Origin: a virus
Taxonomy: Duplodnaviria; Heunggongvirae; Uroviricota; Caudoviricetes
Reading direction: 5' to 3' (one strand)
IMG/VR virus record: IMGVR_UViG_2778261231_000010
DNA: 6,468 nucleotides
Under the pieces are notes generated by a model. The model had not been told where the DNA came from. It did no database searches and worked only from the letters and a program-made list of their open reading frames with translations. Every line of letters begins with the position of its first letter. The first letter of the stretch is position 1. Positions 576 to 6,468 of the stretch are shown piece by piece. A program made the position numbers and the translations under genes.

Positions 576-932
576 TTAAAAAATCAGAACGCCGTGCGGC
601 CTCAACACCCGAAAGGCTTCTTTAAATCTCTGTCGCGAATCATCACGCCAGGCATCTTTATTCAGCCGTCCATATTTCTTTCCCATCCAGGCGTTATCAC
701 CAACACTCTCAAGATGCGGAGGGTCTAATACAACCATCGAAAAAGATGCGTCTGCAAATGATAATGCACGAAAATCTGCGATAATGTCAGGGCTGATAAT
801 CAAGCGTCTCCCATTGCGTAATGTGTATCCTTCTTTTCTGATATCGCTGAATATCGCCCGTTCGTCAGACTTATCGAACCAGAACATGCGGCTGCCACAG
901 CACATATCAAGAATGGTTGCCGGTGCACTCAC
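576..932 (-). CDS. SAM-dependent amino-methyltransferase-like protein (118 aa), apparently C-terminally truncated; possible pseudogene or minimal domain
   Basis: ORF-track protein has a motif I-like ILDMCCGSR near the N-terminus, an acidic residue after a hydrophobic strand (RRLIISPDI) and a motif IV-like VVLDPPHL ([D/N/S]PP[Y/F/W/H] class), then ends at HGVLIF. Starts with GTG at 932-930, overlapping the upstream stop (GTGA). 118 aa is shorter than a complete Rossmann methyltransferase fold. Confidence 0.55.
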   Translation of the reverse strand: MSAPATILDMCCGSRMFWFDKSDERAIFSDIRKEGYTLRNGRRLIISPDIIADFRALSFADASFSMVVLDPPHLESVGDNAWMGKKYGRLNKDAWRDDSRQRFKEAFRVLRPHGVLIF

Positions 933-1225
933 TGCGCCACGTCCTGAAAATTACCCTGATAGAAAGCCAGTATGCGCTGCATAACTTCGCTCTTCCGGCA
1001 CTCGCGACAGATTATGTTTAGGCGACTGTCGTAGCGACGTATTTCTCCGTCAGGTGATGACCAGATAAGGTCCGGATCAACCACAGCAGGTTTCTTCACC
1101 TTTGCCCTCGAGAGTTTTTTGCGGGCGTTTTGCCAGTCCTTACGCGCCTGTTCAGAGGGGAATAACCCGTAGCCGGAGTTGTATACATCGCCACTGGCTA
1201 CCAGCTCTCTGGCAAGAACGCTCAT
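929..1225 (-). CDS. Hypothetical prophage early protein (98 aa)
   Basis: Minus-strand ORF with GGAGG (revcomp of cctcc 1233-1237) 8 nt upstream of ATG 1225-1223. Its start overlaps the stop of the upstream ORF by 1 nt (TGATG). Not recognised. Confidence 0.6.
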   Translation of the reverse strand: MSVLARELVASGDVYNSGYGLFPSEQARKDWQNARKKLSRAKVKKPAVVDPDLIWSSPDGEIRRYDSRLNIICRECRKSEVMQRILAFYQGNFQDVAQ

Positions 1226-1509
1226 CAGATAGCCTCCATAATCGCAGGCACTAGCGCCGTGAACTTTTCACGCTTATCCCTGGTGTCGATAGCCTTCCAG
1301 CGTTCGAATATCTTCACTCGATTAACACCAAGCGCTCGCTGATCAACCGCGCCACCTTCATCTGTGACACGCTGAACATCGATGTTCGGGCGCTCTTTCA
1401 AAGCCCAGAATGCTTCAGTGATTAATATCGTCGCCTGCTCCTGTGTCATTCCTGGTCGACATATCCAGGCATCCAGAGCCTCACGAGCCTGTTCAGGAGT
1501 GATTTTCAT
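1225..1509 (-). CDS. Hypothetical prophage protein (94 aa) immediately downstream of dicC; positional equivalent of Qin ydfX
   Basis: Minus-strand ORF whose start overlaps the dicC 3' end by 17 nt. Position matches ydfX in K-12 Qin; sequence identity is not confirmed from memory, so no symbol is assigned. Confidence 0.6.
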   Translation of the reverse strand: MKITPEQAREALDAWICRPGMTQEQATILITEAFWALKERPNIDVQRVTDEGGAVDQRALGVNRVKIFERWKAIDTRDKREKFTALVPAIMEAI

Positions 1510-1800: not shown

Positions 1801-2208
1801 ATGGATACAAGAACCCTGGGCCAGCGAGTTCTGGCGCGACGAAAAGAATTACGCTTAACACAACGAGAAGCCGCGCGCCTCGCTGGAGTTGCTCACGTCA
1901 CAATTTCACAATGGGAAAGAGACGAAACCCAGCCAGTCGGAAAACGATTGTTTGCTTTAGCGGATGCTCTGAAGTGCTCACCTACATGGCTAATGTTTGG
2001 TGACGAAGACAAGGCACCAGTGCCTGCACAAGAACTTCATGTGGAAACAGAGCTAACTCCCAACCACAAAGAATTGATCGAATTATTCGATGCTCTTCCA
2101 TCTTCCGAGCAGGAAGCCTTGCTGTCTGAAATGCGCGCAAGAGTAGAAAACTTCAACAAACTCTTCGAAGAAATGCTTAAAGCGCGTAAAAATAAATCAA
2201 TAAAATAA
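1801..2208 (+). CDS. dicA: DicA, XRE-family HTH repressor (135 aa)
   Basis: HTH segment LRLTQREAARLAGVAHVTISQWERDETQP and C-terminus EMRARVENFNKLFEEMLKARKNK closely match my recollection of K-12 DicA (135 aa). Divergent dicC and downstream ydfABC-dicF-dicB synteny agree. Confidence 0.92.
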   Translation: MDTRTLGQRVLARRKELRLTQREAARLAGVAHVTISQWERDETQPVGKRLFALADALKCSPTWLMFGDEDKAPVPAQELHVETELTPNHKELIELFDALPSSEQEALLSEMRARVENFNKLFEEMLKARKNKSIK

Positions 2209-2244
2209 CATTCTTTTCAAGTGATTAGTTGCGCCCACCCTTTT

Positions 2245-2262
2245 TGTTAGATCAATCTAACA
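2245..2262. promoter_or_regulatory. Operator-like palindrome TGTTAG-N6-CTAACA upstream of the ydfA-dicB operon promoter
   Basis: tgttag (2245-2250), atcaat, ctaaca (2257-2262). With flanks this is a 20-bp palindrome, ttgttagat-ca-atctaacaa (2244-2263), directly upstream of a -35-like TTGCCT. Confidence 0.55.
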
Positions 2263-2270
2263 AAAAACAC

Positions 2271-2299
2271 TTGCCTCTCATGTTAGGTTATTCTAAATT
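2271..2299 (+). promoter_or_regulatory. Candidate sigma70 promoter of the ydfABC-dicF-dicB operon with an embedded third operator
   Basis: -35 TTGCCT (2271-2276), 17-nt spacer, -10 TAAATT (2294-2299). Spacer and -10 overlap the imperfect operator tgttag-gttatt-ctaaat (2281-2298). Lies about 80 nt upstream of ydfA. Confidence 0.45.
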
Positions 2300-2376
2300 A
2301 TTTTCCATCAAGACACCGCACGGTGTTCTCAGCAAACAGTTCCGCTACCCCGGCGTTAAGGGGAAATGAGGTCAGC

Positions 2377-2532
2377 ATGGATACTATCGATCTTGGCAAC
2401 AACGAATCTCTGGTGTACGGCGTGTTTCCAAACCAGGACGGCACGTTCACCGCAATGACGTATACCAAAAGCAAAACGTTTAAAACCGAATCTGGAGCGC
2501 GTCGCTGGCTGGAAAGAAATTCAGGTGGGTGA
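2377..2532 (+). CDS. ydfA: YdfA-like small protein (51 aa), first gene of the dicB operon
   Basis: From the internal ATG at 2377, preceded by GAGGT: MDTIDLGNNESLVYGVFPNQDGTFTAMTYTKSKTFKTESGARRWLERNSGG, matching recalled K-12 YdfA in length and sequence. The track ORF from 2323 is an N-terminal over-extension. Confidence 0.85.
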   Translation: MDTIDLGNNESLVYGVFPNQDGTFTAMTYTKSKTFKTESGARRWLERNSGG

Positions 2533-2533
2533 T

Positions 2534-2662
2534 ATGGATTTCGACACAATCATGGAAAAGGCTTACGAAGAATACTTCGAAGGCCTTGCCGAAGGCGAAG
2601 AAGCTCTCAGCTTCAGCGAATTTAAACAGGCGCTTTCCAGTTCGGCAAAATCTAACGGCTGA
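2534..2662 (+). CDS. ydfB: YdfB-like small protein (42 aa)
   Basis: ATG at 2534, two nt after the ydfA stop, with AGGTGG upstream. Hand translation: MDFDTIMEKAYEEYFEGLAEGEEALSFSEFKQALSSSAKSNG, stop TGA 2660-2662. Length and position match K-12 ydfB. Absent from the ORF track only because of length. Confidence 0.8.
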   Translation: MDFDTIMEKAYEEYFEGLAEGEEALSFSEFKQALSSSAKSNG

Positions 2663-2691
2663 TAAGCGAAACAGCACCGCAAGGAATCAGT

Positions 2692-2910
2692 ATGCAGAAA
2701 CGAGAACCCGTTATCATCGCGCCAGACTATACCGATGATGAACTTTATGAGTGGATGCACCAGAAAATTAATGCAGCGCAGGATCTGAAATGGGCTAATG
2801 AAGCCAGGGCTAAGCAGGCTGAAAATCTGTTCTCTCTGGAGCAGGATATCACCAATCTGGAAAAAGCAGCGGCATTAAGCATTGCCAGAATGATTACATA
2901 CCCGCGTTAA
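2692..2910 (+). CDS. ydfC: YdfC-like protein (72 aa)
   Basis: ORF-track protein MQKREPVIIAPDYTDDELYEWMHQKINAAQDLKW... with AAGGA SD upstream. Size and position match K-12 ydfC between ydfB and dicF. Confidence 0.85.
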   Translation: MQKREPVIIAPDYTDDELYEWMHQKINAAQDLKWANEARAKQAENLFSLEQDITNLEKAAALSIARMITYPR

Positions 2911-3251
2911 TAGCTAACCAACGAAGCTAAGGTTGGTAATTAAGGAGTTCTCCACGGGTGAGGTGGAGTGCGTGCGCCGGACACGGGTGAGCATCCGGCA
3001 CTGACAGTTTACTGAAAGGATATTTCCCTGAAAAGTCAGACCATAACGCGAAAGCGCACGGCGAGGTAGCTGGTTCATAGATAGCCTGTCGTTAAATTTT
3101 CGTCGACCGTGCGCTTCCGGTTGTGGCAATCCGCGAAATGGCGCGGCGGTAAGTATGGCGGGGTTATTCCTTCCCCCGTTGAGGACACCGGGTTGTCAGG
3201 TTGACCATACGCTTAAGTGACAACCCCGCTGCAACGCCCTCTGTTATCAAT

Positions 3252-3309
3252 TTTCTGGTGACGTTTGGCGGTATCAGTTTTACTCCGTGACTGCTCTGCC
3301 GCCCTTTTT
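3252..3309 (+). ncRNA. dicF: DicF small regulatory RNA (about 53 nt plus U-tail) with intrinsic terminator
   Basis: tttctggtgacgtttggcggtatcagttttactccgtgactgctctgccgccc (3252-3304) then TTTTT (3305-3309) matches the E. coli DicF sequence as I recall it. Terminal GC-rich pairing (ggcgg 3266-3270 with ccgcc 3299-3303) plus U-run. Confidence 0.88.
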
Positions 3310-3478
3310 AAAGTGAATTTTGTGATGCGGTGAATGCGGCTAAGCGCACGCGGAACAGTTAAAACCAAAAACAGTGTTATGGGTGGATTCTCTGTATCCG
3401 ACGTTAATTGTTAACTGGTTAACGTCACCTGGAGGCACCAGGCACCGCATCACAAAACTCATTGTTGAGGGCGCGATA

Positions 3479-3667
3479 ATGAAAATGTTATTACCAAACG
3501 TTAATACGTCTGAAGGTTGTTTTGAAATTGGTGTCACTATCAGTAATCCTGTATTTACTGAAGAGGCCATTAACAAAAGAAAACACGAACGGGAGTTATT
3601 AAATAAAGTATGCATTGTTTCAATGCTGGCCCGTTTACGTCTGATGCCAAAAGGATGTGCACAATGA
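3479..3667 (+). CDS. dicB: DicB, cell-division inhibitor (62 aa)
   Basis: From ATG 3479 (GAGG 8 nt upstream): MKMLLPNVNTSEGCFEIGVTISNPVFTEEAINKRKHERELLNKVCIVSMLARLRLMPKGCAQ, nearly identical to recalled K-12 DicB. The track ORF from 3374 is an over-extended GTG start. Confidence 0.9.
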   Translation: MKMLLPNVNTSEGCFEIGVTISNPVFTEEAINKRKHERELLNKVCIVSMLARLRLMPKGCAQ

Positions 3668-3855
3668 ATCCAGTATTTGCACTTATTCTGACGGTTTTTC
3701 TTGTTTCCGGAGAGCCAGTTGATATTGCAGTCAGTGTTCACAGAACAATGCAGGAATGTATGGCAGCAGCAACCGAACAGAAAATTCCCGGTAACTGTTA
3801 CCCGGTCGATAAAGTTATTCACCCGGATAATATCGAAATCCCGGCAGGTCTTTAA
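3664..3855 (+). CDS. ydfD: YdfD-like small membrane protein (63 aa); lysis-associated in E. coli
   Basis: ATG 3664-3666 overlaps the dicB stop (ATGA). MNPVFALILTVFLVSGEPVDIAVSVHRTMQECMAAATEQKIPGNCYPVDKVIHPDNIEIPAGL has a hydrophobic N-terminal segment and matches recalled K-12 YdfD. Confidence 0.88.
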   Translation: MNPVFALILTVFLVSGEPVDIAVSVHRTMQECMAAATEQKIPGNCYPVDKVIHPDNIEIPAGL

Positions 3856-3948
3856 AACAGTTCCGTAATAAATATCCGGTTTCATTCTTATATGCCAGCA
3901 ATGGCAGGGATTTGTTCATCCTTAAATCTGTCATGAGGTTAAAACAAA

Positions 3949-6144
3949 ATGAGTAAAGTCTTTATTTGCGCCGCCATTCCGGGCGAACAGGCAATAAAGG
4001 AAGAAGGTGCCGTCGCTGTAGCCACTGCCATTGAAGCCGGTGATGAACGTCGCGCCCGCGCAAAATTTCACTGGCAATTCCTGGAACATTATCCGGCTGC
4101 TCAGGACTGCGCTTATAAATTTATTGTCTGCGAGGATAAACCTGGCATACCCCGCCCTGCCCTCGATTCATGGGATGCTGAATATATGCAGGAAAACCGC
4201 TGGGATGAGGAGTCTGCTTCTTTTGTCCCGGTTGAGACTGAATCCGATCCGATGAACGTCACTTTTGACAAGCTGGCCCCTGAAGTACAGAACGCTGTCA
4301 TGGTTAAGTTCGACACATGTGAAAACATCACCGTTGATATGGTTATTAGCGCACAGGAATTGTTGCAGGAAGACATGGCAACATTCGACGGACATATCGT
4401 TGAAGCGTTGATGAAAATGCCAGAAGTTAACGCCATGTACGCTCTCTGGCCTGGTGATGTGGATGCCGGAAACATTGACGGCAGCATCCATCGCTGGGCA
4501 AAAAATGAAGTTATCGACAACGACCGCGAAGACTGGAAGCGTATCTCGGCATCAATACGCAAACAGCCTGATGCCCTTCGCTACGACCGCCAAACTATTT
4601 TTGGCCTTGTCCGTGAGCGTCCGATCGACATTCACAAAGATCCCGTAGCACTGAACAAATATATCTGCGAATACCTGACGACAAAGGGCGTGTTTGAGAA
4701 TGAAGAAACAGACCTGGGCACTGTTGATGTTCTCCAGTCATCAGAAACACAAACTGATGCAGTGGAAACTGAGGTATCTGATATCCCAAAAAATGAAACC
4801 GCACCGGAAGCTGAACCATCTGTAGAGCGTGAGGGGCCGTTCTATTTCCTCTTCGCAGATAAGGACGGAGAAAAATACGGTCGCGCAAACAAACTTTCTG
4901 GTCTGGATAAGGCACTGGCTGCTGGCGCCACTGAAATCACAAAAGAAGAATATTTTGCCCGAAAAAATGGCACATACACGGGCTTACCGCAAAATGTAGA
5001 TACCGCTGAAGATTCAGAACAACCAGAGCCGATAAAAGTTACCGCTGACGAAGTAAACAAAATTATGCAGGCAGCCAATATCAGCCAGCCTGACGCCGAT
5101 AAGTTGCTTGCTGCATCACGTGGTGAATTTGTTGAAGGGATTAGTGACCCGAATGATCCGAAATGGGTTAAGGGGATCCAGACCCGCGATTCTGTGAACC
5201 AGAACCAGCATGAATCGGAACGGAACTACCAAAAAGCGGAACAAAACAGCCCAAATGCGTTACAAAACGAGCCAGAAACGAAACAGCCTGAATCAGTGGC
5301 GCAACAGGAAGTGGAAAAAGTCTGCACCGCCTGCGGTCAGACCGGCGGCGGCAACTGCCCTGATTGTGGCGCGGTGATGGGCGACGCAACATACCAAGAA
5401 ACATTCGATGAAGAGTATCAGGTTGAAGTTCAGGAAGATGATCCGGAGGAAATGGAAGGCGCTGAACATCCACACAAGGAGAACGCTGGCGGCAATCAGC
5501 ATCACGATAGCGATAATGAAACTGGCGAAACGGCAGATCACTCAATTAAGGTGAACGGTCATCACGAAATCACATCCACCAGCAGGACGTGTGACCATCT
5601 AATGATCGACCTTGAAACCATGGGAAAAAATCCTGATGCCCCGATCATCTCAATAGGTGCAATATTTTTCGATCCGCAAACCGGAGATATGGGACCGGAA
5701 TTTAGTAAGACTATCGATCTGGAAACTGCTGGCGGAGTCATTGATCGGGACACCATTAAATGGTGGCTTAAGCAATCACGCGAAGCGCAATCGGCCATTA
5801 TGACCGATGAAATCCCGTTAGATGATGCACTGTTACAATTGCGGGAATTTATCGACGAAAACTCCGGTGAATTTTTTGTTCAGGTTTGGGGAAATGGAGC
5901 CAACTTCGACAACACGATTTTGCGCCGTTCATACGAACGGCAGGGGATCCCCTGCCCGTGGCGTTACTACAACGATCGCGATGTACGCACAATCGTTGAG
6001 CTGGGGAAAGCCATAGACTTCGATGCCAGAACGGCTATTCCATTCGAAGGTGAGCGCCATAATGCACTTGATGACGCCCGTTACCAGGCAAAATACGTTT
6101 CAGTTATCTGGCAAAAACTGATCCCGAGTCAGGCTGATTCTTAA
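3949..6144 (+). CDS. ydfE: Multidomain protein (731 aa): YdfE-like N-terminal region, acidic low-complexity linker with a C4 zinc ribbon, C-terminal DEDDh (DnaQ-like) 3'-5' exonuclease domain
   Basis: Single uninterrupted ORF, GAGG 10 nt upstream of the ATG. Occupies the ydfE position after ydfD. The N-terminus (MSKVFICAAIP...FHWQFLEHYPAAQDCAYKFIVCEDKPG) resembles what I recall of K-12 YdfE. The C-terminus carries Exo I (MIDLETMG, D554/E556), Exo II (GNGANFDNTIL, D654) and Exo III (HNALDDARYQAKY, H704/D709). CxxC-x7-CxxC lies at residues 459-473. Symbol assigned on position and partial recognition only. Confidence 0.85.
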   Translation: MSKVFICAAIPGEQAIKEEGAVAVATAIEAGDERRARAKFHWQFLEHYPAAQDCAYKFIVCEDKPGIPRPALDSWDAEYMQENRWDEESASFVPVETESDPMNVTFDKLAPEVQNAVMVKFDTCENITVDMVISAQELLQEDMATFDGHIVEALMKMPEVNAMYALWPGDVDAGNIDGSIHRWAKNEVIDNDREDWKRISASIRKQPDALRYDRQTIFGLVRERPIDIHKDPVALNKYICEYLTTKGVFENEETDLGTVDVLQSSETQTDAVETEVSDIPKNETAPEAEPSVEREGPFYFLFADKDGEKYGRANKLSGLDKALAAGATEITKEEYFARKNGTYTGLPQNVDTAEDSEQPEPIKVTADEVNKIMQAANISQPDADKLLAASRGEFVEGISDPNDPKWVKGIQTRDSVNQNQHESERNYQKAEQNSPNALQNEPETKQPESVAQQEVEKVCTACGQTGGGNCPDCGAVMGDATYQETFDEEYQVEVQEDDPEEMEGAEHPHKENAGGNQHHDSDNETGETADHSIKVNGHHEITSTSRTCDHLMIDLETMGKNPDAPIISIGAIFFDPQTGDMGPEFSKTIDLETAGGVIDRDTIKWWLKQSREAQSAIMTDEIPLDDALLQLREFIDENSGEFFVQVWGNGANFDNTILRRSYERQGIPCPWRYYNDRDVRTIVELGKAIDFDARTAIPFEGERHNALDDARYQAKYVSVIWQKLIPSQADS

Positions 6145-6216
6145 TGTTCAACTGTCGCCGGTTGTGACTGGTATTCTGCAACCGGCGCTCGTCTGATGTA
6201 AGAGATAAAGAAATCG

Positions 6217-6468
6217 ATGAGCGAAGTAATCATGATTGTCTCTCCCGGCAAATGGGTATCCGAAGAGCAGTTAATTGCGCTGAAAGGAATAAAAAAAGGT
6301 ACGTTAAAAAAGGCCCGGGAAAAATCGTTTATGGAAGGAAGGGAATATAAGCATGTCGCTCATGACGGTATGCCATGGGATAACAGTCCATGCTTTTACA
6401 ACCTGGAAGAAATTGATCGCTGGATTGAGCGCCAGGCATCAGCAAGACCAAGACGTCATCTTACTTGA
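6217..6468 (+). CDS. xis: Excisionase-like protein (83 aa)
   Basis: Complete ORF (stop TGA 6466-6468). Basic protein with a GREYKH motif, resembling the lambdoid-prophage excisionase-like family as I recall it. Position at the distal end of the early-left operon, where xis then int normally sit. Confidence 0.65.
   Translation: MSEVIMIVSPGKWVSEEQLIALKGIKKGTLKKAREKSFMEGREYKHVAHDGMPWDNSPCFYNLEEIDRWIERQASARPRRHLT

Follow-up and report, generated by a model that had tools for sequence, protein, structure and literature searches.

The window, a 6,468-nt stretch of prophage DNA, contains at 3949-6144 an open reading frame that very probably encodes a modular protein of the Qin prophage type, in which a RecE-type scaffold is joined to a DEDDh 3'-5' exonuclease, and not a protein of the RecET type. 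The element carrying it appears to be a Qin-type (dicB-ydfD-ydfE) lambdoid prophage of E. coli, and the gene is an intact version of ydfE, a pseudogene in the Qin prophage of K-12. The enzymatic identity is already known from Pfam and from RefSeq, which names the gene "3'-5' exonuclease/exoribonuclease". The gene is very common, and its DEDDh segment taken alone is present in ~75% of complete E. coli genomes. Names used in phage records include 'exodeoxyribonuclease VIII' and 'exonuclease VIII, ds DNA exonuclease'.

Gene architecture and neighbourhood

The gene and its parts were located as follows, with the supporting evidence in parentheses.

3949..6144 (stop codon included), + strand: YdfE-family prophage gene, 731 aa (ORF list)
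3949..4440, + strand: N-terminal YdfE_N-type region, aa 1-164 (BLASTP against P0121, 823 aa)
4456..5547, + strand: RecE-homologous middle, aa 170-533 (BLASTP against K-12 RecE; NCBIfam NF007259)
5323..5367, + strand: zinc-ribbon-like CxxC-x7-CxxC, C459, C462, C470 and C473 (read from the sequence)
5401..5592, + strand: acidic low-complexity tether of the exonuclease domain, ~aa 485-548 (composition; predicted disordered)
5593..6120, + strand: DEDDh exonuclease domain (DnaQ-like, DexA/Rv2179c-type), aa 549-724 (PF16473, AlphaFold, Foldseek)

This three-part order, with the RecE-homologous middle lying between the N-terminal region and the DEDDh exonuclease, is that of a YdfE-family protein. Precomputed Pfam assignments for the exact 731-aa protein give PF27430 (YdfE_N), PF27432 (YdfE_C) and PF16473, and the protein matches PHROG 2082 'exonuclease'. 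The CxxC-x7-CxxC motif is nearly identical in RecE, where it aligns to 'CNACGQTGGDNCPDCG', and the putative zinc-ribbon segment gave a weak match to an NCBIfam zinc-ribbon model (E=0.015). AlphaFold modelling of the full-length protein from a 23-sequence alignment produced a poor model (pLDDT 58, pTM 0.32) that serves only to outline ordered segments, namely aa 103-250, 295-345 and 549-724; pLDDT was below 50 across aa 463-545, and no fold could be assigned from this model to the N-terminal or middle regions. Separate translation of the domain, with M552 as an internal start, was considered and rejected, as the sequence upstream of this codon contains no Shine-Dalgarno-like element.

The surrounding genes place the open reading frame in a leftward early operon, next to the excisionase gene.

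1801..3855, + strand: upstream part of the same leftward early operon, which includes ydfA/B/C (annotations of near-identical loci)
1801-2208: dicA-like repressor gene (annotations of near-identical loci)
3253-3304: DicF sRNA (Rfam, 76.7 bits)
3479-3667: dicB (annotations of near-identical loci)
3664-3855: ydfD (annotations of near-identical loci)
6217..6468, + strand: excisionase gene (xis), directly downstream (PF06806 DUF1233; 'excisionase family protein')

Between the exonuclease gene and xis (6217) there is no recT or other annealase gene. The same slot is filled by standalone DEDDh genes in Salmonella and E. coli prophages. A scan of 3600-6468 found no promoter-like site on the strand of the gene and no convincing terminator, a result consistent with, though not proof of, co-transcription with dicB-ydfD. 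The gene is probably expressed from the DicA-repressed early-left transcript.

Catalytic motifs and predicted fold of the C-terminal domain

The original prediction placed all three DEDDh motifs in a segment beginning at nt 5590, which corresponds to codon 548.

5599..5625, + strand: Exo I, LMIDLETMG, catalytic D554 and E556 (translation, family alignment, DexA alignment)
5890..5910, + strand: Exo II, GNGANFD, catalytic D654 (translation, family alignment, DexA alignment)
6058..6075, + strand: Exo III, H-x4-D, general base H704, metal ligand D709 (translation, alignments)

Translation of 3949-6141 (+) bears out the reading of Exo I (codons of D554 and E556 starting at nt 5608 and 5614) and, in the same frame, that of Exo II (D654, nt 5908). 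The predicted spacing also holds, with 100 residues from D554 to D654 and 50 from D654 to H704. The Exo III assignment, given as H704 with D708/D709 in HNALDDA (codon starts at nt 6058, 6070 and 6073, respectively), needs to be narrowed: H704 and D709 are catalytic, but D708 is a neighbouring residue. This was apparent from 127 diverse full-domain relatives, the representatives of clusters at 50% identity, since D709 is kept in 125 of them and D708 in just 92. Conservation at the remaining positions was similarly high for D554 (126), E556 (123), D654 (124) and H704 (126), and the complete D-E-D-H-D set is present in 122 of the 127. Catalytic residues have been lost in the other five, two of which are long fusion proteins, while their reading frames are still open; these catalytically deficient relatives hint that the scaffold may have a function that does not need the nuclease.

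Residues 550-721 match Pfam PF16473 (Rv2179c-like) over profile positions 2-177 of 177 with E=2e-67 and 226.7 bits against a gathering cutoff of 27 bits, which, as a comparison of sequences, lies far beyond anything expected from chance. PF00929 (RNase_T), a weak match, was the only other Pfam family found in aa 1-731 in this search. The non-catalytic signature of PF16473 is also present and nearly invariant among relatives: W605/W606 (the WW after the third strand), W671, R680, T681 and Q713, together with the PW..N.RDVRT block. The exonuclease domain is under purifying selection, with dN/dS of 0.12-0.17 against diverged homologues, and Escherichia phage Tritos has a copy with 100% protein identity over the final 186 residues, a span that takes in the entire domain.

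An AlphaFold model of the exonuclease domain (pLDDT 88.1, pTM 0.85) showed the DEDDh fold that had been anticipated. T4 DexA was the best Foldseek match (PDB 8KEL, E=1e-10, TM 0.75), followed by RNase T, a DnaQ domain, REXO2, Cap18, Orn (oligoribonuclease) and RNase AS; the top PDB fold matches listed are all DEDDh enzymes. The family profile matched DexA with E=1e-21, and in this alignment (8KEL) D554, E556, D654, H704 and D709 pair one to one with DexA D7, E9, D119, H186 and D191. The published labelling of the DexA catalytic motif gives these same residues, except that the figure legend prints the Glu as E12 rather than E9 (PMC12153337). D554-x-E556 also aligns to the DxE of Orn and of a DnaQ domain. 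Given the alignment to solved DEDDh structures, the five residues would be expected to cluster around a metal site.

Homology to RecE and exchange of the nuclease module

The original prediction had also argued that the C-terminal domain is DnaQ-like and not a RecE-type PD-(D/E)XK nuclease, and this is supported by the PF16473 match, the DEDDh fold and the absence of any match to PF12684 or another PD-(D/E)XK family in Pfam. Its suggestion that the exonuclease VIII label is owed to gene position does not hold. The label is owed to real homology, as aa 170-533, about half of the protein, align by BLASTP to residues 278-591 of K-12 RecE with 40% identity (E=6e-62), rising to ~85% (judged by eye from the alignment) across RecE ~460-591. 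The NCBIfam RecE equivalog NF007259 matches aa 169-533 only, at profile positions 288-602 of 877, and its score of 277.9 bits is below the cutoff of 1269 bits. The first ~280 residues of RecE (PF06630) are unmatched. In RecE the nuclease domain has been assigned to residues 564-866, and no function is known for the N-terminal domain (PMC11611040). The mislabel is common because the DEDDh domain is fused to the front portion of RecE, which is non-catalytic.

The junction can be placed at aa 533/534, where homology to both RecE and the protein P0272 (900 aa) stops, just before the RecE nuclease domain. P0272 is 97% identical to aa 164-533 of the window protein and yet carries the RecE nuclease; PF12684 matches K-12 RecE and P0272 at ~E=4e-28 and is likewise carried by P0280 (900 aa). 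In P0273 and P0280, which have the P0272-type architecture, the gene is followed by recT. The DEDDh fusions of the window and of the loci L001, L002, L005-L009 and L012-L015 lie directly before xis-int or int without recT, and in the contexts examined recT was found only beside PD-(D/E)XK alleles. As the PD-(D/E)XK module comes with recT and the DEDDh module comes without it, we conclude that the locus reflects a swap of the nuclease module and is not a RecET recombinase.

State of this copy

Relative to the common 823-aa form, the window gene has a 276-bp (92-aa) in-frame deletion. By BLASTP against P0121 (823 aa), aa 1-164 correspond to 1-164 and aa 164-730 to 256-822, so that the junction falls at aa 164; the DNA shows a 'TA' microhomology at this point. 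The surrounding prophage is degraded, with int truncated to 182 aa, an IS1 abutting the window and a replication region short by ~1.35 kb. The gene may thus no longer have a role in vivo, because 92 N-terminal residues are missing and the prophage has decayed. The literature yielded no functional study of ydfE.

Proposed activity and alternative explanations

By analogy with its family, the domain would hold two Mg2+ ions through D554, E556, D654 and D709, while H704 would activate a water molecule for cleavage of the 3'-terminal phosphodiester, releasing nucleotides singly in the 3'-to-5' direction. Enzymatic activity and 3'-5' polarity are thus expected from membership in the DEDDh family. 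The C-terminal 180 residues, assigned to the DexA/Rv2179c family PF16473 with its DnaQ fold, would be tethered by a stretch of ~140 residues that is predicted to be disordered and is acidic in its C-terminal part; ahead of the tether lies the region homologous to the non-catalytic N-terminal and middle parts of RecE, with its zinc-ribbon-like CxxC...CxxC. The RecE-type scaffold would thereby have had its 5'-3' PD-(D/E)XK nuclease exchanged for one of opposite polarity, the DEDDh module sitting in the last gene before xis-int, with no annealase. The main substrate is probably DNA rather than RNA, given that no characterised relative is closer than T4 DexA and that the scaffold derives from an enzyme of DNA ends. 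Trimming of 3' tails, modulation of recombination during induction and attack on the DNA of competing phages are candidate roles.

That the window protein is itself RecE, a 5'-3' PD-(D/E)XK double-strand DNA exonuclease working with RecT, is scarcely credible, although several phage records annotate the gene as exonuclease VIII, the homology to RecE 278-591 and the partial NCBIfam match are real, and alleles near-identical in the N-terminal part are genuine RecE-type proteins. The homology ends at RecE 591 and the C-terminal fold is DEDDh; PD-(D/E)XK matches are lacking, the equivalog score is 278 bits against the 1269-bit cutoff, and recT adjoins none of the DEDDh-allele contexts examined. 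At the level of sequence and fold, exonuclease VIII identity is therefore refuted. A more serious contender, though we consider it unlikely, is a mainly 3'-5' exoribonuclease like M. tuberculosis Rv2179c/RNase AS, which would work on transcripts of the host or the phage from their 3' ends or, in a variant covered by the same judgement, would attack the genomes of RNA phages in the manner of the ISG20-like TONDO proteins. RNA may be a substrate because the Pfam family is named after the exoribonuclease Rv2179c/RNase AS and RefSeq often uses "3'-5' exoribonuclease"; RNase AS (6s0m) is also a structural match (E=4e-6), and DEDDh enzymes often accept both nucleic acids. Against this, RNase AS ranked 50th among the fold matches and DexA first, and Rv2179c/RNase AS was absent at E<=1 from PDB sequence searches run with the protein alone or with either of two family profiles, in which the DexA profile match reached E=1e-21; the scaffold, moreover, descends from a DNA-end enzyme. 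Prophage DEDDh proteins with auxiliary domains do defend against RNA phages (PMC13344964), but the TONDOs were found through homology to ISG20, not to DexA or Rv2179c, and are described by their authors as distinct in sequence from other defence-associated DEDDh domains (PMC13344964). The comparison with the window protein draws on this published description.

Less probable still is a prophage-borne anti-phage exonuclease of the HREX/EcD type, selective for the 5-hydroxymethylcytosine (5hmC) DNA of T-even phages. The window domain falls into one DexA-like family with EcD, a homologue from E. coli for which degradation of T4 DNA and protection of cells have been reported (Kang et al. 2025, PMC12153337); the window gene is prophage-borne, its DEDDh segment is as widespread as noted above, and the slot beside int is often occupied by accessory genes (PMC12315714). 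However, opposite the DexA residues reported to read 5hmC, the window protein has Y674 (for W152) and A688 (for D169). Y674 lies in the well-conserved PW.(F/Y)xN.RDVRT block, so the Trp is absent from a reliably aligned position, which is W in 59 and Y in 23 of the 127 relatives; the D169/A688 equivalence is less certain because sequences vary there and an insertion is present. The defensive, dimer-only type is said to be defined by loss of the Asp that forms the tetramer, DexA D90 (PMC12153337), but this residue aligns to D626 and the Asp is retained. A PADLOC scan of the whole 731-aa protein gave no match, and the gene sits in a DicA-repressed lytic operon, not in a position expressed during lysogeny. 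The most plausible of the alternatives, which we still regard as rather unlikely, is that in this genome the gene is a decaying relic without current function despite its intact motifs. It draws on the 92-aa in-frame deletion in the N-terminal region, the degraded state of the prophage (int of 182 aa, IS1 at the window edge, ~1.35 kb of the replication region gone) and the interruption of the K-12 ortholog, the pseudogene ydfE, by IS2. Arguing the other way, the reading frame is open through all 731 codons, the identical protein is recorded in 6 contigs, other 731-aa variants are known at 87-98% identity, and the exonuclease domain is the same as that of phage Tritos. The question of a relic addresses the present use of the gene and not the identity of the domain.

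Significance

The worth of the RecE-scaffold/DEDDh assignment lies mainly in annotation. In many phage and prophage records the gene is called "exodeoxyribonuclease VIII", a label extended even to DEDDh genes that stand alone. The name suggests a 5'-3' nuclease that acts in recombination together with RecT, which is wrong for the window gene; searches of prophages for RecET-type recombineering systems would be misled by it. The swap is also a clean case of mosaic module exchange within a coding sequence, the scaffold being 97% identical between the two versions. It bears on the role of the N-terminal two thirds of RecE, and the two natural chimeras make this question experimentally approachable.

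Speculatively, and with low confidence, the non-catalytic RecE/YdfE region can be viewed as an interchangeable targeting scaffold for nucleases of opposite polarity. If this were true, the PD-(D/E)XK module with recT would make 3' tails for annealing, and at these same DNA ends the DEDDh module without an annealase would have the opposite task. Removal of 3' tails could then block recombination by the host or by rivals, or incoming phage DNA could be destroyed in a defence resembling HREX. The gene, whose DEDDh segment is found in roughly three out of four complete E. coli genomes, would then encode an uncharacterised factor for end processing or exclusion, and the catalytically dead long variants P0127 and P0132 would show activity of the scaffold independent of the nuclease.

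Comparison with known systems

RecE of the Rac prophage shares with aa 170-533 of the window protein the zinc-ribbon-like motif and the acidic stretch. Both are large nuclease genes of a leftward early operon, located between kil/dicB-type genes and xis-int. They differ at both ends and in their partners: RecE has a PF06630 N-terminus, a PF12684 PD-(D/E)XK 5'-3' nuclease and an adjoining recT, whereas the window protein has a YdfE_N-type N-terminus and a DEDDh 3'-5' domain, and its locus is without recT. Zheng et al. (2025, PMC12315714) noted genes for DnaQ-type nucleases close to int in lambdoid phages, and these agree with the window gene in class and position; within the available portion of that paper, no description was found of the fusion to a RecE scaffold or of the swap with the RecE nuclease and recT.

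T4 DexA (PDB 8KEL/8KEN) belongs to the same DEDDh subfamily as the window domain and is its best match in both sequence and fold, at 21-23% identity. DexA is a standalone protein of 227 aa with extra loops from a lytic phage, while the window domain is the C-terminal part of a 731-aa fusion from a temperate phage. Rv2179c/RNase AS has the Pfam family and fold in common with the window domain but is a distant member, a standalone RNA exonuclease of a non-phage host, in contrast to a domain within a phage fusion. EcD (GenBank HAK9828821.1) is an E. coli-encoded, DexA-like DEDDh member with catalytic residues reported as conserved, and was compared here by its published description. It begins MIDTET, a motif present in no close relative of the window protein that was retrieved, and it appears to be standalone from its primers and from a model in which only surface loops and helices are missing relative to DexA, whereas the window protein is a fusion, is without the Trp of the DexA-type W/D pair and probably lacks its Asp. 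In exact scans, the 20-nt gene-specific part of the EcD reverse primer gave one chance match each in viral_contigs, where the ORFs were checked, and in genome_contigs (an Acetatifactor MAG, judged from the organism), and no retrieved protein combined a MIDTET start with a primer-consistent C-terminus. As no EcD sequence match was recovered, the relation to EcD is known at the family level only.

The K-12 Qin pseudogene ydfE is the same gene at the same chromosomal locus, beside rspB/rspA/ynfA, and is nearly identical over the first 164 residues. In K-12, the gene is cut by IS2E after ~300 codons and the exonuclease domain is lost; the window copy, in contrast, has kept the exonuclease domain and has given up 92 internal residues.

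A DEDDh exonuclease domain at the C-terminus

The window contains a single long plus-strand ORF, 3949-6144, encoding 731 aa, and nt 5590, where the stretch flagged for its catalytic motifs begins, is codon 548 of this exonuclease gene. The original prediction, made from the sequence alone, had assigned three motifs to D554/E556, D654, H704 and D708/D709; all of these codons lie exactly where they were placed, with the claimed spacings of 100 and 50 residues between motifs. Codon reading of the ORF gives:

Plus strand, D554 and E556: Exo I, LMIDLETMG
Plus strand, D654: Exo II, GNGANFD
Plus strand, H704, D708 and D709: Exo III, HNALDDA

Exhaustive searching of 1.84 billion cluster representatives with HMMER returned 12,156 relatives at E<=1e-3, and conservation was scored in 127 diverse family members spanning the full domain. 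D554 and H704 were each retained in 126 of these, D654 in 124 and E556 in 123, and the whole catalytic set was intact in 122. D709 was kept in 125/127 but D708 in only 92/127, so Exo III, proposed as H-x3-DD, is the canonical H-x4-D with D709 as the catalytic acid; H704 stands as assigned while D708 does not. Catalytic residues were lost in five representatives: P0127 (contig locus L013, 6001-8259; E->K in Exo I, D->A in Exo II), P0132 (E->K, D->N and D->G), P0216, P0265 and P0172. Two of the five are long open fusion proteins, and these relatives may be pseudo-nucleases with a scaffold-only function.

Pfam model PF16473 (3'-5' exoribonuclease Rv2179c-like domain) covers aa 550-721 (model positions 2-177 of 177, E=2e-67), a full-model match that rules out a chance motif pattern; PF00929 (RNase_T) is a weak second match. 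An AlphaFold2 model of the C-terminal 191 residues, built with 30 homologues (pLDDT 88.1, pTM 0.85), has a strand and helix order compatible with the RNase H-like (DnaQ-type) fold, which is established by the Foldseek matches. The top PDB match was T4 DexA (8KEL/8KEN; E=1e-10, TM 0.75), followed by many RNase T entries, a DnaQ domain (8H18), REXO2, CBASS Cap18 (7T2S), oligoribonucleases and ERI-family enzymes, with RNase AS, which is Rv2179c (6S0M), at rank 50. A 75-sequence family profile matched DexA over the full domain (E=1e-21) and also paired all three motifs with those of oligoribonuclease and a DnaQ domain. By hmmalign, D554, E556, D654, H704 and D709 correspond to DexA D7, E9, D119, H186 and D191, the catalytic motif labelled in the DexA paper except that its figure legend prints the glutamate as E12 (PMC12153337). 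Taken together, the Pfam match, the DEDDh enzymes recovered by Foldseek and the motif alignment to DexA uphold the DnaQ-like 3'-5' exonuclease class and show that the protein is a DEDDh family member with an intact catalytic set. Given the equivalences with DexA and other DEDDh enzymes, the five side chains would cluster at the active site.

RecE homology and exchange of the nuclease module

The original prediction also argued against a RecE-like PD-(D/E)XK nuclease and attributed such annotations to gene position. The first argument holds: in a Pfam scan PF12684 (PDDEXK-like) was absent from the window protein and present in K-12 RecE, the NCBIfam RecE equivalog matched aa 169-533 (profile positions 288-602 of 877) at 278 bits against a cutoff of 1269, and the homology stops just short of the RecE nuclease domain, residues 564-866 (PMC11611040). 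The mislabel is real, but position alone does not account for it, as BLASTP aligns aa 170-533 to K-12 RecE 278-591 at 40% identity. Read by eye, identity reaches ~85% over RecE ~460-591, a stretch that includes an acidic tail and two elements seen in the same alignment:

5101-5190, plus strand: LLAASRGEFVxGISDPNDPKWVKGIQTRD block
5323-5367, plus strand: CxxC-x7-CxxC zinc-ribbon-like motif

These are the most conserved parts common to both proteins; both lie in a low-confidence AlphaFold region and may be where the scaffold binds a partner or DNA. The function of the RecE N-terminal domain is not known (PMC11611040). In the full-length AlphaFold model, ~140 low-confidence residues join the DEDDh domain to the RecE-like scaffold, a tether that is probably disordered. 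The domain fold is common in phages, and a viral structure library names it "Exonuclease", "DexA", "3'-5' exoribonuclease" or "Exodeoxyribonuclease VIII", the last put even on a 195-aa protein.

A search with aa 1-545 recovered hundreds of 812-826-aa DEDDh alleles and also ~900-aa proteins (P0272-P0281, P0333) with a precomputed Pfam architecture of YdfE_N, YdfE_C and PF12684. Window aa 164-533 share 97% identity with P0272, which changes to RecE nuclease sequence (VEDIEPGIYYGISNENYH...) at the very point where the window protein changes to KVNGHHEITSTSRTCDHLMIDLETMG; this divergence puts the swap breakpoint at aa 533/534, about nt 5548. In both 900-aa contexts read (P0273 in contig locus L022, 1632-5136; P0280 in L023, 8001-11493), the PF12684 nuclease replaces DEDDh, and the genes downstream are, in order, recT, a DUF1187 gene, xis and int. 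In all DEDDh-allele contexts read (the window, L001, phage Tritos (L002), L005-L009 and L012-L015), xis or int comes directly after the gene and there is no annealase gene; the L012 allele is a variant whose N-terminus is of the RecE type (PF06630), with kilR upstream of it. Nuclease type thus covaries with recT, and a RecET-type recombinase reading of the DEDDh form is ruled out by the missing annealase gene in these contexts.

The L022 and L023 loci are Qin/Rac hybrid prophages, integrated beside genes for a PF01171 protein and a dbpA-type helicase, the arrangement found around Rac in K-12 (ttcA-dbpA). In Salmonella and E. coli prophages, standalone DEDDh genes of ~185 aa fill this slot immediately before xis-int (L016-L018, 7001-7570; L019, 2576-3127); those of Salmonella come after a DndB-like gene. 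The 456-aa, 157-aa and 183-aa ORFs of L019 resemble a full-length gene broken by frameshifts.

Prophage setting and conservation

The window is a Qin-type lambdoid region, with the gene order:

First in order, minus strand: DicC/Cro-like gene
1801-2208: DicA-like repressor gene
After the repressor gene: ydfA, ydfB, ydfC
3253-3304, plus strand: DicF antisense sRNA (full-length Rfam match RF00039, 76.7 bits)
After DicF, in this order: dicB, ydfD, exonuclease gene, xis

DicF precedes dicB in the presumed operon that also carries the exonuclease gene. This gene corresponds to ydfE of K-12, a pseudogene truncated by IS2E, but is intact. A 9-bp GC-rich inverted repeat, CGCCGGTTG ... CAACCGGCG, with a 14-nt loop lies 13 nt past the stop codon (6157-6188, plus strand) and is followed by no T-run.

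Six contigs carry exactly this 731-aa protein; rspB/rspA/ynfA adjoin its gene wherever flanks were read, and int is truncated to 182 aa wherever called, which indicates a decaying prophage. Compared with the common 823-aa form, the gene has lost 276 bp (92 aa) in frame after residue 164 (4438-4441, codons 164/165), with 'TA' microhomology at the junction. Its 5' 491 nt are 96.1% and its 3' 1707 nt 99.9% identical to the L001 copy, so the gene itself is mosaic. At 929-1509 (minus strand), the DUF977 and YdaT ORFs are 98 and 94 aa against 141 and 174 aa in L001, and the 322-aa gene between them in L001 is absent, a second deletion of ~1.35 kb in this remnant. The window opens within the terminal inverted-repeat end of IS1, and positions 1-75 gave no alignment to the closest complete genomes; directly upstream, the matching contig L005 carries IS1 insA/insB.

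Over its last 186 residues, which take in the entire exonuclease domain, the protein is 100% identical to its counterpart in Escherichia phage Tritos, and dN/dS against diverged homologues is 0.12-0.17. DEDDh segment DNA (nt 5548-6144) was found in 4053 of 5426 complete E. coli genomes, at up to 7 copies per genome.

Predicted activity and comparison with known systems

Like other DEDDh enzymes, the protein would use two-metal catalysis to remove nucleotides from 3' ends. Its substrate is more likely to be DNA, since among characterised relatives DexA is by far the nearest and the scaffold derives from an enzyme that acts on DNA ends; RNA, suggested by the family namesake Rv2179c and by the RefSeq name for the protein, would be the less probable one. 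The E. coli DexA homologue EcD is reported to degrade 5hmC DNA and protect against T4 (Kang et al. 2025; PMC12153337), but an anti-phage defence role of this type is improbable here: by hmmalign the 5hmC-reading residues W152 and D169 of DexA correspond to Y674 and, in a less reliable stretch of the alignment, A688, and DexA D90 to D626, a PADLOC scan of the protein gave no match, and the gene sits in a repressed lytic operon. Zheng et al. noted DnaQ-type nuclease genes near int in lambdoid phages, left them out of the recombination module and commented that 3'-5' nucleases of this kind usually inhibit homologous recombination (PMC12315714).

The DEDDh finding is correct but ordinary. Pfam recognises the domain, the YdfE_N/YdfE_C/Rv2179c-like architecture is precomputed in public data, RefSeq uses the names "3'-5' exonuclease", "3'-5' exoribonuclease" or plain "exonuclease", and published work already mentions both the nuclease class and where it sits. 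To this we add D709 as the corrected Exo III acid, a reason for the RecE mislabel (real homology to the non-catalytic part of RecE), the exact swap breakpoint, and the tie between nuclease module and the presence or absence of recT.
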